From Octopus vulgaris (lineage: Eukaryota), in contig OX597821.1 in assembly GCA_951406725.2 (NCBI GenBank), positions 16,802,001 through 16,866,000 of the forward strand: a DNA stretch of 64,000 nt, given 5' to 3'. The position numbers and the translations under genes are program-made. How positions within the stretch are numbered: position 1 is the stretch's first letter; every line of letters begins with the position of its first letter. The notes beneath the pieces are model-generated. The model was not told the origin of the DNA, did not search any database, and worked only from the letters and a program-made list of their open reading frames with translations. Below, one piece after another: positions 3,881 to 47,110 of this stretch.

Positions 3881-3885
<5 letters not shown>
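3646..3885 (+). mobile_element. tRNA-derived SINE, family C (V-domain-like 3' part)
   Basis: Head GGCGCGTGGCTTAGTGGTTAGGG with B-box-like TTCGATTC; 3' part GATGGACTGGCGTCCCGTCCAG shared with the element at 29475-29780. Confidence 0.75.
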
Positions 3886-3936
<51 letters not shown>

Positions 3937-3939
<3 letters not shown>

Positions 3940-4388
3940 CAAAAAGGGTAATAACATAAGTTATTAATACCAGTGGCCTAGCACAAAAGACGAATTAGTC
4001 ATTAGACAATATACTATTCATATAGAAATATAATAAAGGCTCCCAAATAAAGAAGCAACTGCTAAAACGCAAAGAGGGATAAATTCATCAAAGGAATGAA
4101 AATCAAAAACATTTACCATTATAGATGTATCCCAGACTGATCAGTTTCTACAAACCGTTAGAGCTACACGTGCTCTAACGCTCTGTGTATCTAGGATTTA
4201 GAAGGCTACCCACTGACAAACCTTGCCTTAGCAAACATATTCTGTAAGTTTTGCTAGAAAGAGGTAGAAACTGATCAGTCTGGGATACATCTGTAATGGT
4301 AAATGTGTTTGATTTTCATTCCATTGATGAATTTATCTCTCTTTGTATTTCTAGCACTTGCTTTCTTATTTGGGAGCCTTTATTATAT
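3937..4388. mobile_element. PLE-type non-coding fold-back insertion in (TA)n
   Basis: Imperfect inverted arms ~4027-4151 and ~4264-4388, extra tail 3937-4026 on the left arm, TA-rich tracts on both sides. Confidence 0.75.
4209..4284 (+). ncRNA. degenerate type I hammerhead ribozyme
   Basis: CCCA-CTGACAA-ACCT...(TAGCAAA/TTTGCTA)...AGGT-A-GAAA-CTGATCAG-TC-TGGG: stem I 4 bp, palindromic stem III, GUC triplet; core has G8>A. Confidence 0.6.
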
Positions 4389-4987
4389 ATATATATATAT
4401 TATATATATATATTATATTATATATTATTATATATATTATATTATATATTATTATATATATTATTATATATATATATTATATATATATTATATATATATA
4501 TATGCACATTTATTCGCTCATAAATGCAGCAGCATCGGCTTTGAAAGTAATAAACTAATTATAGGCTGTGTATTCAGTGTAGATAATGATTTGTCGTATG
4601 TCAGATATCAATCGATCCCATTATACAGAGAGAGAATGCGTTGCATCACTGGTTTTATTTTGGTTAAAGGTTTATTTCTTCTGATAACATTTCTTCCTGA
4701 AAAATAAATACAGTTCACCAAAGGCCTCCAGTTCTCTATGTCCAGCAAAACCTATGTTACGGATAGCTATCTCTGCACAAGAGAATATATTCAATTATAA
4801 GTATACAAAGACATTAGCAACCAACCACAGAGTGACCATAACCGAGATGAAGTTGTCGAATGATATCTGTTAATTACGCTACCTATTTGGAAAATAAACA
4901 AAATATATGTTTATTATAGATGGGATATATTTACTACACATTCATATATGTTTATTGAAAGTACATAACTAAATCAGATTCAAATAA

Positions 4988-16624: not shown

Positions 16625-16703
<79 letters not shown>

Positions 16704-16707
16704 TATA

Positions 16708-17472
16708 AATATTTAAATAATGAGGGAGATAAATTAATATTAATTTTAATATCAATTTAAAACCAGTAGTCTAGCATACAAAAAATCTGAGAAGTCAGAG
16801 AAAATTCTAATATATGTGTATATTGGCAGGGCAGGACTGCTAGGTAGTCGGCCGTATGCTAGAAATAGATCATCAACGATCAAAACTACAAAGAAATTCA
16901 GCGAACACCAGAACCAAATTTGGCGGGCAGGACAGATGAAAATTTATATAAAAAACAGAATTAAAGCATACCTCGGTTTCGGCCTTTAACAAAGGAATTA
17001 CTTACATAATTCAAATGTCCGTGGCTTCATCAGTGCATTCGTTCAGTGTCAATGCAATTTACAAAACTAACCCCAGCTTTCTGTGCCAAGACAGACACGT
17101 GCTTAGTTTTACCGATTACATTAGGGATAAAATTTCAAATGTCTTGGTTCCGGCGCACTAAGAAATTCCTGAAGCGAAGAACTGCAGTAAATAATTCACT
17201 GCGGTTAGTGCTTGCTACTAGAGAACGTATTTATTTCAATATTTAAATAATGAGGGAGATAAATTAATATTAATTTTAATATCAATTTAAAACCAGTAGT
17301 CTAGCATACAAAAAATCTGAGAAGTCAGAGAAAATTCTAATATATGTGTATATTGGCAGGGCAGGACTGCTAGGTAGTCGGCCGTATGCTAGAAATAGAT
17401 CGTTTTGTAGTTTTGATCGTTGATGATCTATTTCTAGCATACAGCCGACTACCTAGCAGTCCTGCCCTGTCA

Positions 17473-17485
<13 letters not shown>
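16708..17485 (-). mobile_element. hammerhead-bearing non-autonomous PLE/retrozyme-like element, 530-nt monomer
   Basis: Direct repeat 16708-16871 = 17238-17401 (period 530), then an inverted copy of ~16810-16892 at ~17403-17485; (TA)n on both flanks; no credible ORF. Confidence 0.8.
16963..17039 (-). ncRNA. type I hammerhead ribozyme
   Basis: Minus strand: AATGCA-CTGATGA-AGCC..(GAATTA/TAATTC)..GGCC-GAAA-CCGAGG-TA-TGCTTT; intact CUGAUGA/GAAA/GUA core; predicted cut between 16969 and 16968; first pair of stem II is an A-C mismatch. Confidence 0.8.
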
Positions 17486-17525
<40 letters not shown>

Positions 17526-21977: not shown

Positions 21978-22143
21978 TAGTCCTGCCAGACTATTTTCGT
22001 GCCCCTCCCCCGAATGGGGGTGGGAATTGGAATTTTTGAACTGCTTTTTTGAACTACTTTAGAAGAAAAACTTTCTATAGGTTTCCCAGTTTTGTGGGAA
22101 ACCAATATTCGTAATTTTTGTGTTGTCTAATTTCAACAGAATA

Positions 22144-23546
22144 ATGTCTGTTGAAATTATTCACGAAAGTAGTGCTTTTGAGGAGAGCAATGTTAAAAGA
22201 TTTTCTACGGTAGCCGCAGTGGCTACCGAGAACATTGACTGCGATGTCAATCAGCTCGTCGAGCTATTTAAAAGAATGCAAGAGGAGGGTGGTGATGTTA
22301 AAATATCACCCTCCGCCAGTATCGTGGAGACCGAGAAGCGGACCGTAGTGTTTAAAAATTTCTGTCCACAAAGCAGAAGGTTCAAACACTTTGAAAAAAG
22401 CACCATCGAGAAATGCCTGTCCCCGATTTGGAAGGACATCGTGTACGTCGCCAGGGGACGGGCATATGGCACTGTGGATGTCCGCTTCTCGGGGGAAGAA
22501 ATGGCCCGCGGGCATTCTGTGAACCCCCTAAAAACCAAGGAGGTGGTACTTTTCCCAAGCTATAGGGGACGCAGGACGTCCCGGGTCAGGATTGTAGAAG
22601 CCCCGCCGGTAGTAGATCCGGTAGAGGTAGTGGCCGCCCTGTTATAAAAAATGGCGGACAAAATAAAAATACTTCAAGTAACATCCTCTACCCCTCTATT
22701 TTGGCTCGGGCGTAACATTAACATATTAATTCAATGAACAGCGGAGGACCTGCAGTTCCTTCCTGAGAGGGTGCTCGTGGGCGAGAACGTAGCCCTCAGG
22801 GTACAGGTCGAAGGCCGAAAACCCACCTGTTACGCCTGCGGCAAAAAGGGCCACATTCGTGTAGACTGTCCAGACAAGCAAAAGAAACCGCAGACACCAG
22901 GCCCCTCAGATAATAAAAAAGTCCCTACCCTTGCAAACACACCTACCCCTACAAAAACAAAAAATCCCACTCCTGCTGTTACGGTGCCAACCCCAAAACA
23001 AACTGAAGAAAAACTCAGCCCTCGCACTCACAAACCCCTACACTATTAAAACCTCCCACCCCCCTAAAAACTGCGGCGCCTACCGAACAAACTATTGCTA
23101 CCCCAGACGATACCATGGAGGTATCAGAGGGGGGATTTACACCAGTTCGTAAAAGAATTCGTGCAGCATCCCCGTCCACATCCCCTACAAAAAATAAGAA
23201 AAACAAAGACATACCACAGACACGGAAAAAAAAATCCCGCTCAACTGGCCCAGAAAAAGAAGACAAAAAAGAAAATGAACTCATATTAATTGAATTCGAC
23301 ACACAAGACAATTACATAAACGATATTGTGGTTCAGCATCAGTCAGCAAGACTGTACAACAAATACAAAGATCGAAATAGACACGCGTGGATTGCGGAAA
23401 CAACGTTCAAACAATTAAAAGACAGACACCCAAACGCCATCCGGCATATCGCGAACTTGCCGGACTATCTGAAGAAAGAGGAGAAAGAAGAGGCCCACAA
23501 ACGTGTGGTGAGGTCGGCCCCCACCTCTCCAACGAAATGTAAGTAG
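22144..23546 (+). pseudogene. LINE ORF1 (RNA-binding, CCHC zinc knuckle), disrupted
   Basis: Fragments 22120-22647, 22771-23049 (CYACGKKGHIRVDC = CX2CX4HX4C) and 23115-23546; in-frame stops at 22645 and 22735 plus frameshift. Confidence 0.8.
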
Positions 23547-23563
23547 AACTTTTACTTTTTGTA

Positions 23564-26500
23564 ATGGCTTCGCTTAACCTTGGTTGTTTAAATGTGCGTG
23601 GTCTGAGTTCGAAGTGGAAGCAGGCTTGTTTCCTCGACGACCTTAGATCTCATGATATACATGTGATGGTCGCTACAGAGACCAAGCTGGACAGCCTATA
23701 AACCTTCTCGCCTCTCCTGAATGGCTACGAGAAAATCATGTCTCCTGGCCAGACCGGAGGGCGAGGGGGCGTAGTGGTACTGATCCGTAAAGACTTGGCT
23801 CTACAGACAAGTACAGTCTATGTAGACCCAGAAGGTGGGCTGGTCGTCCTTGATGTGACATACAGCAGTAAGGCCTTCAGGTTGATCGGACTCTATGCAC
23901 CTTGTGCTAGAGGTTTCCAAACTGATTTTTATCGGCGCCTAGAGGGCTTTCTCGTGACGTCGAAGACTTTAGTGATATTAGGGGACTTTAATGCTATCGT
24001 TGACGTACACATCGATAGCGTTGGCTCGATCTATAGGAAAGTGAACTCACGTCTCGTGGATCTGCTTAAGCGGTTTCAGCTGGCAGATCGTTACAGACTT
24101 GACCATCCGAATGTCCCAGAGTGGACCTGGATGAGTGGCGACGGAAGGTTCAAGTCTTATCTAGACAGGATAGTGATAAGAACTAGAGATAAGTCTAGTT
24201 TTAGTTGTCCACAGCTCGTCCAGGTGCCCTATACTGACCATAGAATGGTCACGTGTAGACTGGACATAGATAGCACACTTAAGCTAGGAACCGGCTACTG
24301 GAAGCTGAACAAGTCTACTTTGACACCCGAGGCATACCGTAGCCGGATTAAGGTGTTAGTGCAGAGGGCGTTAACCGGAGCCGTGGTTAATAACCGGTGG
24401 TGGTTCGCCCTCAAAAGAGCCATTCGATTCGAGTCCATTAGATTTAGTAAACAACTAAGACTAGATAGGGCTAGAATAGAAGGGCAACTAGTTAAGAACT
24501 TAGAGGAGGCGTTGAGGTTGGGCTCTGCATCTCACATTTTAGCGGCGAGAACGGCATTAGACCGTCACCTCAAAACCAAACATGAGGGATGTAGAGTCCG
24601 GGCTAAAGTACGAGCATTGGGCCGTGAGGGAATTAATGTTGCCGGATGGGCCCGTACGATAGAAACACAGCGTGGAAACGATGCCACAATTGGGTCTCTT
24701 GTTGATGAAAACGGATGCACGATCAAGAAGCGGAACGAGATGTGTGAGGCACTTCACAAGCACTTCGCCGAGTTGTTCGGGAGGTGCGGGACGCTGGATC
24801 ATGGTGAGGCCCTTAGGGACTTCCTGTCTGTTGGCCCGCGCCTCTCGACACGAGAGGCTGAGTGCTGTGAAGGGCCAATCACAGCCGAGGAAGTAATCGA
24901 GGTGTTGGGCAAGTGCCCCGGGGAGAAGTCGCCGGGTCTCGATGATCTGCCCTATGAATTTTATAGAAGTATGCCAGACTTGTTCGGGCACCTGCTGGCT
25001 AGCGTCTACGCCAACTGGCAGCAGAATGGGAGAATTCCCAAGTCTGCGAGCCGGGGGGCGGTGACGTTGATCAGGAAGGACCCGAACAAGGAGGACGAGA
25101 TAGGGAACTTCAGGCCCATAACTCTGTTAAACACAGAGTTAAAGATTCTGGCCAAGGTGCTAGCAAAAAGGTTGGCGCGGGTCGTGGACAAACTTGTCGG
25201 GGAAGCGCAAACGTGCGCTATCCCCGGCAGAAAGATCCATGACAATCTCCACCTTATACGCTACTCCTTAGAGAGGGTGGGGAAGCTTTCTGGCACAGGG
25301 GGAGCACTGGTACATTTAGACCAGTCCAAAGCGTTTGATAGGGTCGACCATCGGTACCTGGCGGCGGTCCTCGGAGAGGCTGGCCTAGGCCCGACCTTTC
25401 GAGGTTGGATCGCTCCTTTGTATAGCGACATCGAGTCTGTAGTCAAGGTGAACGGTTCCTTTTCGAAGCCGTTCAGGATCGAGCGTTCAGTTCGTCAAGG
25501 GTGTCCCCTGTCCTCGCTCCTATACGTATTGGCTCTTGAGCCTTTGCTGCGGAAGTTGGAGGCACTAGGGGGCGCGCCGCATGATCTATGGTGTGGAAGA
25601 GGAGCTACGGCGTATGCGGATGACACCTCCATCATCGTGGCAGACGAAGGCCAGCTCCCAGTGGTGGAAGAGGCCATCAAAATCTACGAGGCGGTGGCAG
25701 GAGCAAAGCTTAACAAGGACAAGTCGGTCGGTTTGCAACTCGGCACCTGGAGGGGCAAGCCGATGCCGTCCAATAACGTCGTAGGGCGTTGAACGGAAGG
25801 TCCTGTTAAGCTGCTCGGAGTCTGGTTCGGGTCAGACCTCCAGATTGAGAAAAATTGGAGTGAGGTGGCCAACAAGGTGACCGCTCTAACCCAGACCTGG
25901 TCTGGGCGGGCGTTATCCCTGCTAGGGAAGGCGGAGGTGGTGCAGATGTTTATAGCATCAGTAATCACCTACCGTCTGACCGTGGTGCCTTGCCCCGATT
26001 TGTGGCTGAACAAGTTGGAGAGAATCCTTTTCCGATTTTTGTGGAAAGGAGGAAAGCCACTTGTAAAGCGCTCTGTCTGCTGCCAGAAACCGCTAAAGGG
26101 TGGGCTAGGGATGCCTTGGCTGAGGATGCGAAAACTCGCGTTAAGGTTGAGGCATCTCTGGCTTTACCTGGATGGAGAGCAGGTGTGGTCACCGCACGTC
26201 CGGTTCTACCTTCCCCAGTTAACATCCCTAACGGACATCGGTGCATGGATCAAGCGGAGACCTAAACTGAGTGAATGGCATTTGGAGTGCCGTCAGGCGC
26301 TCCAGCTACTATCTCGGGTGGGCAACGCCGGCAACAGGAGTTCCACCACGGATTTCTATAGCGGGTTAGTGGAGATTAAGTCCGAAGACGCCTTGGGGAG
26401 ACCCTGGGCTACGATGAAAATCAGTTGATCAACCTGTTCCGGAGGACGTTCGGGCCGGGGTTTCTGGATAATTACCAGAAATCCCTGGCCTGGCAGTGTT

Positions 26501-26964
26501 TCCGTGCGGCTTTACCTGTTCGCGACAAGCTGTCAAGGCACGGTAGTGCCGTCTCGCCGACATGCCCGCGATGTGAGCAGGATATGGAGACCGTCTTGCA
26601 CGCATTCGTGGTGTGTCCGGAGTTATCGGGACTGATAGCTTTTGTTGAACAACTGTTATCAGTGATGGGAAGAGTACAGCTATCAGCTGAGTCTATCATC
26701 GAGATTGTGCCGCCCCCTTTCCTTAACAGGGAAAGAAAGGCTTGTTTTTTCTGTGTAGTAGCCATACTGAAAGAAACAGTATGGAAGACGCGTACGAAAG
26801 GTATAGTGACAGGCACCTTTGTCTCCGGCCAGGGGTTGATTAACTTTTTTAGTTACCACCTCAGTAGCAAAATCAGGCTGGAGAAGAGGTGTCTGTCACG
26901 AGATATGTTTGTGAAAAGATGGAAGCCTGTGGCATGGAAGATGGGTATGTTTGGCACCAGGTAA
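23564..26964 (+). pseudogene. LINE ORF2: APE endonuclease, reverse transcriptase, C-terminal zinc finger; disrupted
   Basis: Starts MASLNLGCLNVRGL; motifs LGDFN, LDRI, TDH, GYWKLN, KSPGLD, NFRPITLLN, KAFDRV, VRQGCPLS, YADD, CPRC..H..C; stops at 23699 and 25790, frameshift near 26400-26425. Confidence 0.93.
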
Positions 26965-33797: not shown

Positions 33798-34062
33798 TGG
33801 TAGATAGATAGATACATACATACATACATACATACAAAGAGAGGTCGATATATATATATATATATATATTATATAATTAGGGCTTAGTAAAATAAAATAA
33901 ATTACTTTGCCACATACTGAACTTAATAGAAATAGCAGCCAAAAAAATTTTTTCTTAGCATTTCTACTACTTAAAGAAAATTTCTCTCAGATAATATTTA
34001 CTCCAGAAAGCTCACGAAGGTTTGGGGGTAAATACAGAAAAATATCACAAGTACATAGATCG

Positions 34063-34125
34063 TTTGAGTACGTCAACGTTTCAAGATTAGCCAAATAAAA
34101 TCAGCATTTCTTTCGTCAGCTCAAA
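34063..34125 (-). ncRNA. type I hammerhead ribozyme
   Basis: Reverse complement of the motif at 34975-35037; intact core. Confidence 0.88.
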
Positions 34126-34974
34126 ATTTCTTAATTTGGATTTGGAAACACTAAAAAGAAGGAACTTTACCTATCATCGAACTTGTCGCTTCAGATAAAC
34201 CACTCCAACTAAACTGTGTCAACAAATTCAAAATGCGCAGGCGTAAAATTCTGCACTCCCCATTCCACCCACGTGGTCTATCTAGCAAACACTATATTTT
34301 AACCGCGAGAACCAAGGCAGTATGACCGAGAGAAATGAATTATAATATCAACAATTGAGGGTAAAATTAATTAATTAATCAATTTCACCAAGTGTTCAGT
34401 ATGTAAAATAAAAATAAATTAGTAAAATAAAATAAATTACTTTGCCACATACTGAACTTAATAGAAATAGCAGCCAAAAAAAATTTTTCTTAGTATTTCT
34501 ACTACTTAAAGAAAATTTCTCTCAGATAATGTTTACTCCAGACAGCTCACGAAGGTTTGGGGGTAAATACAGAAAAATATCACAAGTACATAGATCGTTT
34601 GAGTACGTCAACGTTTCAAGATTAGCCAAATAAAATCAGCACTAAGCCCTAATTATATAATGTAATATTTTGAATTCGCCTTAAATGGTCCTTTTGAATA
34701 CTGAACACTTGGTGAAATTGATTAATTAATTAATTTTACCCTCAATTGTTGATATTATAATTCATTTCTCTCGGTCATACTGCCTTGGTTCTCGCGGTTA
34801 AAATATAGTGTTTGCTAGATAGACCACGTGGGTGGAATGGGGAGTGCAGAATTTTACGCCTGCGCATTTTGAATTTGTTGACACTGTTTAGTTGGAGTGG
34901 TTTATCTGAAGCGACAAGTTCGATGATAGGTAAAGTTCCTTCTTTTTAGTGTTTCCAAATCCAAATTAAGAAAT

Positions 34975-35037
34975 TTTGAGCTGACGAAAGAAATGCTGAT
35001 TTTATTTGGCTAATCTTGAAACGTTGACGTACTCAAA
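34975..35037 (+). ncRNA. type I hammerhead ribozyme
   Basis: TTTGAG-CTGACGA-AAGA..TCTT-GAAA-CGTTGACG-TA-CTCAAA: stem I 6 bp, stem II 4+ bp, stem III ACGT/ACGT, GUA triplet, predicted cut after 35031. Confidence 0.9.
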
Positions 35038-35320
35038 CGATCTATGTACTTGTGATATTTTTCTGTATTTACCCCCAAACCTTCGTGAGCTGTCTGGAGT
35101 AAACATTATCTGAGAGAAATTTTCTTTAAGTAGTAGAAATGCTAAGAAAAATTTTTTTTGGCTGCTATTTCTATTAAGTTCAGTATGTGACAAAGTAATT
35201 TATTTTATTTTACTAAGCCCTAATTATATAATGTAATATTTTGAATTCGCCTTAAATGGTCCTTTTACATACTGAACACTTGGTGAAATTGATTAATTAA
35301 TTAATTTTACCCTCAATTGT

Positions 35321-35367
<47 letters not shown>

Positions 35368-46719: not shown

Positions 46720-46732
46720 TATGTAATATATA

Positions 46733-47110
46733 TATTACATACATATAAGAGTGATGGCCACTAGGTGAACATCCATTATGCTAGTGGACATCCATTATCC
46801 ATTATGGTCTGACCACTAAGTAAAGAAATCGGGTTTGTGATTAATCTTTATATTTTGTATCTTTTCATTTGCCTTGCTTGCTTACGTTCTGGCGTTTGCT
46901 GACTTTTCTTGAGAACAATCTTTTCTTAGTGGTCAGACCATATGGGGTCTACCTCTAGCATAATGGATGTCCACTTATTGGTCATCCCTCTCATATGTAT
47001 GTAATATAATTTTTCTGAATCTTCAGATTTTTCAATATGCTAGGCCACTGGTTTTAAATTGATACTAATCAAATTAATATTCAATTTTTCACCCTTATTA
47101 TTTAAATTTA
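46733..47110. mobile_element. PLE-type 3'-end fragment with inverted duplication
   Basis: 46733-46810 is a rearranged inverted copy of ~46925-47007; 3' terminus TGCTAGGCCACTGGTTTTAAATTGATA..CCCTTATTATTTAAAT matches the 16.7-kb element end. Confidence 0.75.

Follow-up and report, generated by a model that had tools for sequence, protein, structure and literature searches.

Metazoan non-LTR retrozymes are ORF-less, AT-rich, dispersed tandem units with one type I hammerhead each, and the family described here from Octopus vulgaris resembles them in all these respects. Published unit lengths are 170-400 nt (Cervera and de la Pena 2020, PMC7229834) and 51-972 nt (Li, Clavereau, Pollet, bioRxiv 10.64898/2026.07.22.740005), compared with 566 nt here. 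It has been proposed that non-LTR retrozymes are copied from circles by PLEs (PMC7229834; bioRxiv 10.64898/2026.07.22.740005), and eight of nine Xenopus retrozyme dimers did not cleave in vitro (bioRxiv 10.64898/2026.07.22.740005). The present family has head-to-head arms, two fixed ends and (TA)n targeting, none of which is described for non-LTR retrozymes in the accessible text of these sources; the word "inverted" has no occurrence in PMC7229834.

In its insertion anatomy the family recalls EN+ PLEs (Penelope/Poseidon, Neptune and Naiad), which show 5′ truncation, partial tandems, an inverted 5′-truncated copy, a one-ended tail and a microsatellite target (PMC8557442, PMC3846280). The PLE tail is often at one end only (PMC8557442), and a hammerhead with a palindromic stem III is also a PLE feature (PMC4209133). 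Unlike EN+ PLEs, the family has no ORF, and its tail measures 94 nt instead of 30-40 nt. The complementarity of two end types, A and B, that we counted (52 of 53 pairs), and the alleles shared by the two arms, go beyond the EN+ PLE descriptions in the accessible sources.

For Poseidon of Anolis carolinensis, two internal RT start sites were found in vitro to bound the tail, both target strands were cut and extended, and a dimer was predicted (Frangieh et al. 2024, PMC11167929). Its start sites were alike on both strands, whereas the genomic products seen here are almost strictly A+B (PMC11167929). Two sites bounding the tail, an AT-rich target and use of both strands are common to that element and our family.

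L1 twin priming also gives a head-to-head inversion from two primers, with microhomology at the junction; there the annealing site of the second primer varies within the element, and the two arms meet end to end on the RNA. In the present family, by contrast, both sites are fixed, the arms overlap in sequence, and the 5′ ends of the B arms are not clustered at site A.

Earlier publications already cover retrozymes and the PLE connection proposed for them, as well as the inverted ends, one-sided tail and two RT start sites of PLEs. In the literature searched, for the most part open-access main texts, we found no count of the A/B rule, no account of allele sharing or of such features on a retrozyme, and no paper on a cephalopod retrozyme.

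Architecture of the locus

The window is the whole stretch of 64,000 nt that was analysed. At 33868-35326 it contains two arms that diverge from a junction at 34641 and are set inside (TA)n (Table 1).

Table 1. Features of the hammerhead locus in the window, and loci of the sister families in the genome
Feature	Position	Strand	Remarks
(TA)n target, left side	33848..33867	strandless	
Left-arm 3′ end, site A	33868 side	-	unit position 21; merges into (TA)n
Left arm (A arm)	33868..34641	-	about 1.4 units; 5′ truncation at monomer position 354
Type I hammerhead	34063..34125	-	sequence identical to plus copy; predicted cut at 34069
Replaced segment	34409..34418	-	10 nt in place of 46 nt of unit; internal site A lost
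Half hammerhead	34598..34641	-	3′ strand only, without CUGANGA core; begins inside stem II, monomer position 354
Head-to-head (5′-to-5′) junction	34641..34641	strandless	1-nt overlap
Right arm (B arm)	34641..35326	+	one 571-nt unit plus 115 nt; period 571
Type I hammerhead	34975..35037	+	predicted cut after 35031 (GUA)
Conserved cis-element	35158..35326	+	about 170 nt; predicted fold
Predicted long stem enclosing site A (35232)	35179-35189 with 35267-35276	+	
"Tail" between sites A and B	35233..35326	+	94 nt; right end only
Predicted hairpin before site B (35326)	35282-35311	+	
Right-arm 3′ end, site B	35326 side	+	unit position 115; merges into (TA)n
(TA)n target, right side	35327..35361	strandless	
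Sister retrozyme family, 546/560 nt	L117-L141, L200, L201		
Sister retrozyme family, 562 nt	L223-L241		
Sister retrozyme family, about 516 nt	L242-L266		

Part of what a sequence-only reading had described here was borne out. The plus block has a period of 571 with terminal redundancy (115 nt), both outer ends merge into (TA)n, and there is no credible ORF at the locus, the longest stop-free stretch being 65 aa and the longest ATG-started one 34 aa. The minus block does hold about 1.4 units, but it is not a plain repeat: its spacing is 535 because of the 46-to-10 nt replacement (a net 36-nt deletion), which is unique to this locus among the loci inspected by eye. The figure of 571 nt stands as a local period and not as the family unit. 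That unit is about 566 nt, and the difference is due to a 5-nt duplication present in all three copies in the window and, family-wide, in 4 of 114 loci.

The arms of the window locus differ by 1.02%, against a median of 0.64% in 29 pairs, which makes the locus older than the family median. With this divergence, the deletion across site A in the minus unit and no pair of complete hammerheads on one strand, the locus is probably an ordinary copy and a dead-end product, and the earlier suggestion that it is the best exemplar, or the source of a 571-nt circle, is not supported. It lacks the two consecutive complete hammerheads by which an "active" retrozyme is recognised in the preprint (bioRxiv 10.64898/2026.07.22.740005). 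Both flanks of the insertion are (TA)n, where public contigs break, and none of the listed public contigs bridges the insertion site as an empty allele; no target-site duplication could be read from these flanks.

Inverted repeats in microsatellites are hard to assemble, a sister array of 13 identical units adjoins a gap of Ns, and no listed public contig bridges the junction of the window locus. These points would fit an assembly artefact from fold-back chimeric reads, or satellite DNA reshaped by recombination after insertion. Such an origin is extremely unlikely, given arms that differ by 0.6-1% private changes, two distinct fixed ends and unique junctions. In addition, contigs of two public runs that differ in organism label (X15, 14 rows; X16, 3 rows) contain joints from left to right arm at other positions, with short sides of 20-29 nt.

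Predicted hammerhead ribozymes

Both hammerheads and the third half copy noted earlier at this locus were confirmed. A strict type I scan found hammerheads at these two loci only in the window, and 30 shuffles of the window gave one match in all. The plus hammerhead has a stem I of 6 bp, a stem II of 4+5 bp and a palindromic stem III. The description of these hammerheads as canonical was correct for the core bases, all of which are present, but not for the first pair of stem II (10.1-11.1), which is A-U instead of the G-C that is highly conserved according to PMC4209133. The Rfam search that had been proposed as a check returned no hammerhead family, neither at gathering score nor at E<=10; low-score matches to miRNA and snoRNA families were rejected as simple repeats or chance.

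Over six families, covariation was seen in five of six stem I pairs and stem III is self-complementary in all six, while RNAalifold recovered stem I only. For the window hammerhead, stem III is predicted at -10.8 kcal/mol as a dimer duplex versus +0.4 kcal/mol as a hairpin, and the active and blocked folds are predicted to be nearly equal (-9.2 versus -9.6 kcal/mol). In the predicted fold of the circular unit, stem III has a probability of 0.1, compared with about 0.5 for the blocked pairing. This predicted folding agrees with PMC4209133, where cleavage is described for dimers only. In the family, 21 of 190 arms carry two or three complete hammerheads on one strand, which the window locus does not, and the source copies are likely among these arms.

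The retrozyme family in the genome

The assembly comprises 2.8 Gb in 227 contigs. A 30-nt hammerhead-core pattern has 290 exact matches in it and the reversed control none; a search with the unit gave 1,743 candidates, the best 40 of which were scored and show mostly 96-98% identity. We analysed 114 loci, 56 obtained by DNA searches and 58 around listed hammerhead-pattern matches on contigs 1-5. Two of the 58 (L145 and L146, both single-arm) resemble one duplicated locus.

The family unit of about 566 nt is tandem, low in GC and without an ORF, and units carry the type I hammerhead core with three stems. Median divergence from the majority base is 1.2% over the 114 loci, which include 68 head-to-head pairs with junctions that mostly overlap by 0-5 nt. 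The family is a young, ORF-less non-LTR retrozyme with PLE-like insertion anatomy, a kind already known, and the earlier proposal of a young, non-autonomous, (TA)n-targeted hammerhead retroelement of PLE/retrozyme type is supported. The unit was also present in public runs X10, X15, X16 and X19, whose four organism labels make it probable that related species have the family too. None of the runs listed with the unit is marked as RNA; contigs presumed to be RNA cover parts of the unit, though contigs cannot show transcription, circles or ends.

Other elements in the window

About ten insertions in 64 kb had been claimed for this system; this number was not confirmed, as we found two hammerhead-bearing insertions in the window, besides two other (TA)-bounded inverted repeats that lack a core match. 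The second hammerhead element, at 16686-17490, is unrelated to the first; its core lies at 17033 on the minus strand and its stem III is palindromic. A direct repeat (170 nt) is accompanied there by an inverted arm (83 nt); (TA)n bounds the element, and its two ends differ.

Of the two inverted repeats, one, at 3884-4503, is (TA)-bounded, has 81% identity over 258 nt including TA runs and no hammerhead-core match, and shows an identical 10-base sequence on each outer flank, which may be a target-site duplication. The other (46731-47008; 97 nt, 82%) starts in TA-rich DNA directly after a SINE-like copy and contains no hammerhead core. Nine SINE-like copies of about 400 nt (at 1033, 1819, 3168, 15038, 27193, 40370, 46309, 55390 and 60520) also have no hammerhead core, and the internal (CA)n/(TA)n tract of this repeat could supply targets for (TA)n-directed elements. 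A broken LINE with APE endonuclease and RT, which we take to be L1/Tx1-like, lies at 22081-26964.

Two fixed 3′ ends

The most informative feature, and one that the sequence-only reading did not mention, is that the two outer ends are fixed and differ. Site A is at about position 21 of the unit and site B at position 115, 94 nt away. The 3′ end falls at A in 85 of the 190 arms from the 114 loci, at B in 86 and elsewhere in 19. Alternating AT directly follows 77 of the 85 A ends and 81 of the 86 B ends, and 70 of the B ends stop at one single base.

The ends are combined in a regular way. The 68 head-to-head pairs include 52 A+B, one B+B and no A+A; the other 15 have one end elsewhere and were excluded from the A/B test, which on the 53 classifiable pairs gave an excess of A+B at p 6e-15. 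When only loci picked by the hammerhead motif alone are counted, 22 of 23 pairs are A+B (p 3e-6), and the two orientations are equally common, A being the left end in 11 and B in 11. Even among the 54 apparently single arms, five are A arms with a tiny inverted B end and one is a B arm with a tiny A end. The window locus follows the same rule, with A on the left and B on the right.

All 20 pairs in the sister families are A+B; their loci were mostly fetched with queries containing site B, which does not exclude B+B. An autonomous Neptune-like PLE family, with its own 40-nt tail, has A+B-type ends in both of two loci. As a genomic pattern, the rule of one A and one B nearly always holds across the family (52/53). 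The sole B+B locus, L143, is among the most diverged, with 92-95% identity and arms 2.2% apart.

Origin of the two arms and their template

Arms of the same locus differ at 237 of 25,454 comparisons (0.93%), versus 2.2% between loci in permuted pairs. At 54 shared polymorphic sites the difference is 3.0% within and 13.0% between loci, below all 200 permutations. With homopolymer tracts masked, the differences between arms within a locus are 148 private and 6 shared, and those within arms are 111 private and 9 shared. This preponderance of private differences is what changes arising after insertion would produce. Private differences outnumber private shared changes (111 versus 14 within arms and 148 versus 10 between arms), which makes strong gene conversion unlikely.

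In 21 of the 52 A+B pairs each arm has sequence that is absent from the other, and arm lengths within pairs are uncorrelated (rho 0.13, p 0.35). Based on these results, both arms likely derive from RNA by separate priming events. Allele sharing could also be explained by one dominant source gene at a time, so a single RNA molecule for both arms is not proven.

Another route to two arms is a single priming event, after which the second arm is made by fold-back or self-priming of the cDNA and an endonuclease trims the tail from one end, as suggested in PMC3846280 and PMC8557442. Allele sharing between arms is expected under such copying, the geometry of 31 of 52 pairs would allow one arm to be a copy of its partner, and 5 of 52 start within 10 nt of each other, compared with 1.9 expected. 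In the 21 pairs noted above, however, neither arm is a copy of the other, the arm lengths are independent, and both ends correspond to the pair of RT start sites that another PLE used in vitro; we thus regard fold-back as improbable. The B arm in the window begins 21 nt before site A, which prompted the idea of L1-style twin priming with abutting arms. That idea was rejected, as only 3 of 52 B-arm 5′ ends lie near site A versus 3.8 expected. B arms hence show no stalling at A, and copying of both arms from one RNA needs efficient strand displacement, which we assume.

Under separate priming at two sites, the nature of the template can be addressed from the 5′ ends. Only 2 of 171 lie within 5 nt of the ribozyme cut versus 3.3 expected, and in the absence of a pile-up a linear cut monomer was rejected as the template. 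The cut site was read through in 143 of 171 arms, in 30 of them twice or more (a count enriched by the choice of loci). Arms longer than 600 nt (77 of 190; longest 2,026 nt) align to unit repeats only, and at one sister locus an A arm of 12 units is accompanied by a short inverted B arm. Lineage alleles were found in both units in 92 cases, with 9 shared-allele mismatches in 17,496 comparisons. That the units of a locus nearly always have the lineage alleles in common indicates a bottleneck of one unit in each round. Together with the long arms and the lack of stops at the cut site, this bottleneck favours a circle, and given two-site priming we consider that the template was probably circular RNA.

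Alternatively, a PLE priming at two sites might have copied an uncut linear multimer, the transcript of a tandem array in the genome, with a hammerhead that acts late or stays idle. In vitro, the anole PLE mainly copied uncut linear RNA (PMC11167929), such a template predicts that the cut site is read through, and one sister family does have long arrays. Shared alleles form a mosaic in some arms (L175 at three sites and L082 at one), and the 12-unit sister array has a variant in every third unit; both patterns fit a multimer template or later duplication. Yet units of a locus hardly ever mismatch at shared alleles, against a 13% difference between loci at polymorphic sites; being in register does not make arms more similar (0.63% in register versus 0.82% out of register, p 0.14); and the hammerhead fold is conserved across families. 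On balance we judge an uncut multimer to be unlikely as the template.

A conserved cis-element and sister families

Sites A and B lie in a segment of about 170 nt that is roughly 70% conserved in other families. At least four tandem hammerhead families share this cis-element; it is common to all sister families, whose hammerheads differ, and a multi-family system, as had been proposed from the window, is thus supported genome-wide. Eight sequences yield a consensus fold of four helices; 91% of its cells are paired and two-sided changes occur in 6 of its 30 pairs, above shuffled and slid controls. As the eight sequences are related, we take the covariation as support and not as proof. In the predicted fold, an AU-rich loop within a long stem contains site A, and a hairpin immediately precedes site B. 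The two sites resemble the target, and in this model they could possibly anneal to it.

A 27-nt sister-family pattern has 655 exact matches in the genome. The sister locus L200 contains 13 identical 546-nt units adjoining a run of Ns and may be an assembly product. At L068:5082-5440, L106, L251 and L254, elements have inserted into (TA)n ends, either those of a PLE or one another's, so that insertions stack at microsatellites.

Autonomous PLEs in the genome

At least three young PLE families have two ORFs and encode RT and GIY-YIG, the nuclease being preceded by a cysteine motif. Families at L051-L062 and L297-L315 retain many intact RT/GIY-YIG frames of 781, 784 and 784 aa, preceded by a separate frame of about 440-480 aa. 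PLEs are usually described with a single ORF. Judged by the description in PMC8557442, the young two-ORF families are Neptune-like. Those whose ends were read are inserted in (TA)n. No canonical hammerhead was found in the three young families; in one of them the 3′ region contains a degenerate hammerhead-like motif, and the tail end weakly resembles site B.

The cis-element was not joined to an autonomous PLE in any of the PLE loci examined (three young Neptune-like and several older families). These searches recovered only Neptune-like families, both from a Pfam GIY-YIG search (6,136 candidates, best 150 scored) and from a PLE RT query (12,892 candidates, best 112 scored). Matches to the cis-element profile in L038, L068, L217 and L279 were rejected as separate insertions or as resembling them; none is continuous with an ORF 3′ end, L279 being assessed without inspection by eye. 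A pattern from one contig loose end had no match, and a second such pattern led to a sister retrozyme family and not to a PLE.

The loci could also be viewed as 5′-truncated tail-end copies (pseudo-LTRs) of an autonomous PLE and not as a separate non-autonomous element, since their anatomy is that of a textbook PLE. Against this, every arm above 600 nt wraps into the same unit, and across the 114 loci we found no common upstream sequence or ORF and no RT/GIY-YIG ORF joined to the unit. As no examined PLE ORF is joined to the cis-element either, we consider such an origin very unlikely.

Proposed mechanism and significance

We lean towards a protein-free hammerhead retroelement that is inserted in trans by a PLE RT/GIY-YIG protein priming on both (TA)n strands, probably on circular RNA. 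A locus with two tandem hammerheads would be transcribed and would cut itself as a double hammerhead, because the palindromic stem III is stable only between two copies. The cut unit would be ligated into a circle, as published work on retrozymes suggests, and the single hammerhead of the circle is predicted to fold mostly into the blocked form. A PLE dimer may then bind the 170-nt structure and nick both strands of (TA)n. Priming from one nick would start at the AU-rich site A and priming from the second at site B, downstream by 94 nt, in keeping with the observed ends. Each cDNA would extend for a random length, often past the cut site and one full unit, which is the pattern observed for the arms. 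The two cDNA ends would finally be joined via microhomology of 0-5 nt, leaving head-to-head arms and a one-sided tail. More tentatively, the dimer may sit on the 170-nt element with its active sites at A and B, rolling on two tracks round the ribozyme-made circle.

The origin of PLE inverted ends with a one-sided tail has been called unresolved (PMC8557442, PMC3846280, PMC11167929), and the view that PLEs copy retrozyme circles is grounded in co-occurrence and similarity (PMC7229834; bioRxiv 10.64898/2026.07.22.740005). Counts that long elements do not give can be had from a family that is short, young and high in copy number. The A/B rule, the alleles shared by the arms and the lack of stops at the cut site sharpen both questions into bench tests, for which the conserved cis-element is a ready substrate. 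If true, such docking of a dimer and two-track copying of a circle would explain the PLE tail, head-to-head pseudo-LTRs and the tandem arrays of retrozymes in one step, and the cis-element would be a portable signal for double-strand-primed, microsatellite-targeted insertion of circular RNA cargo.
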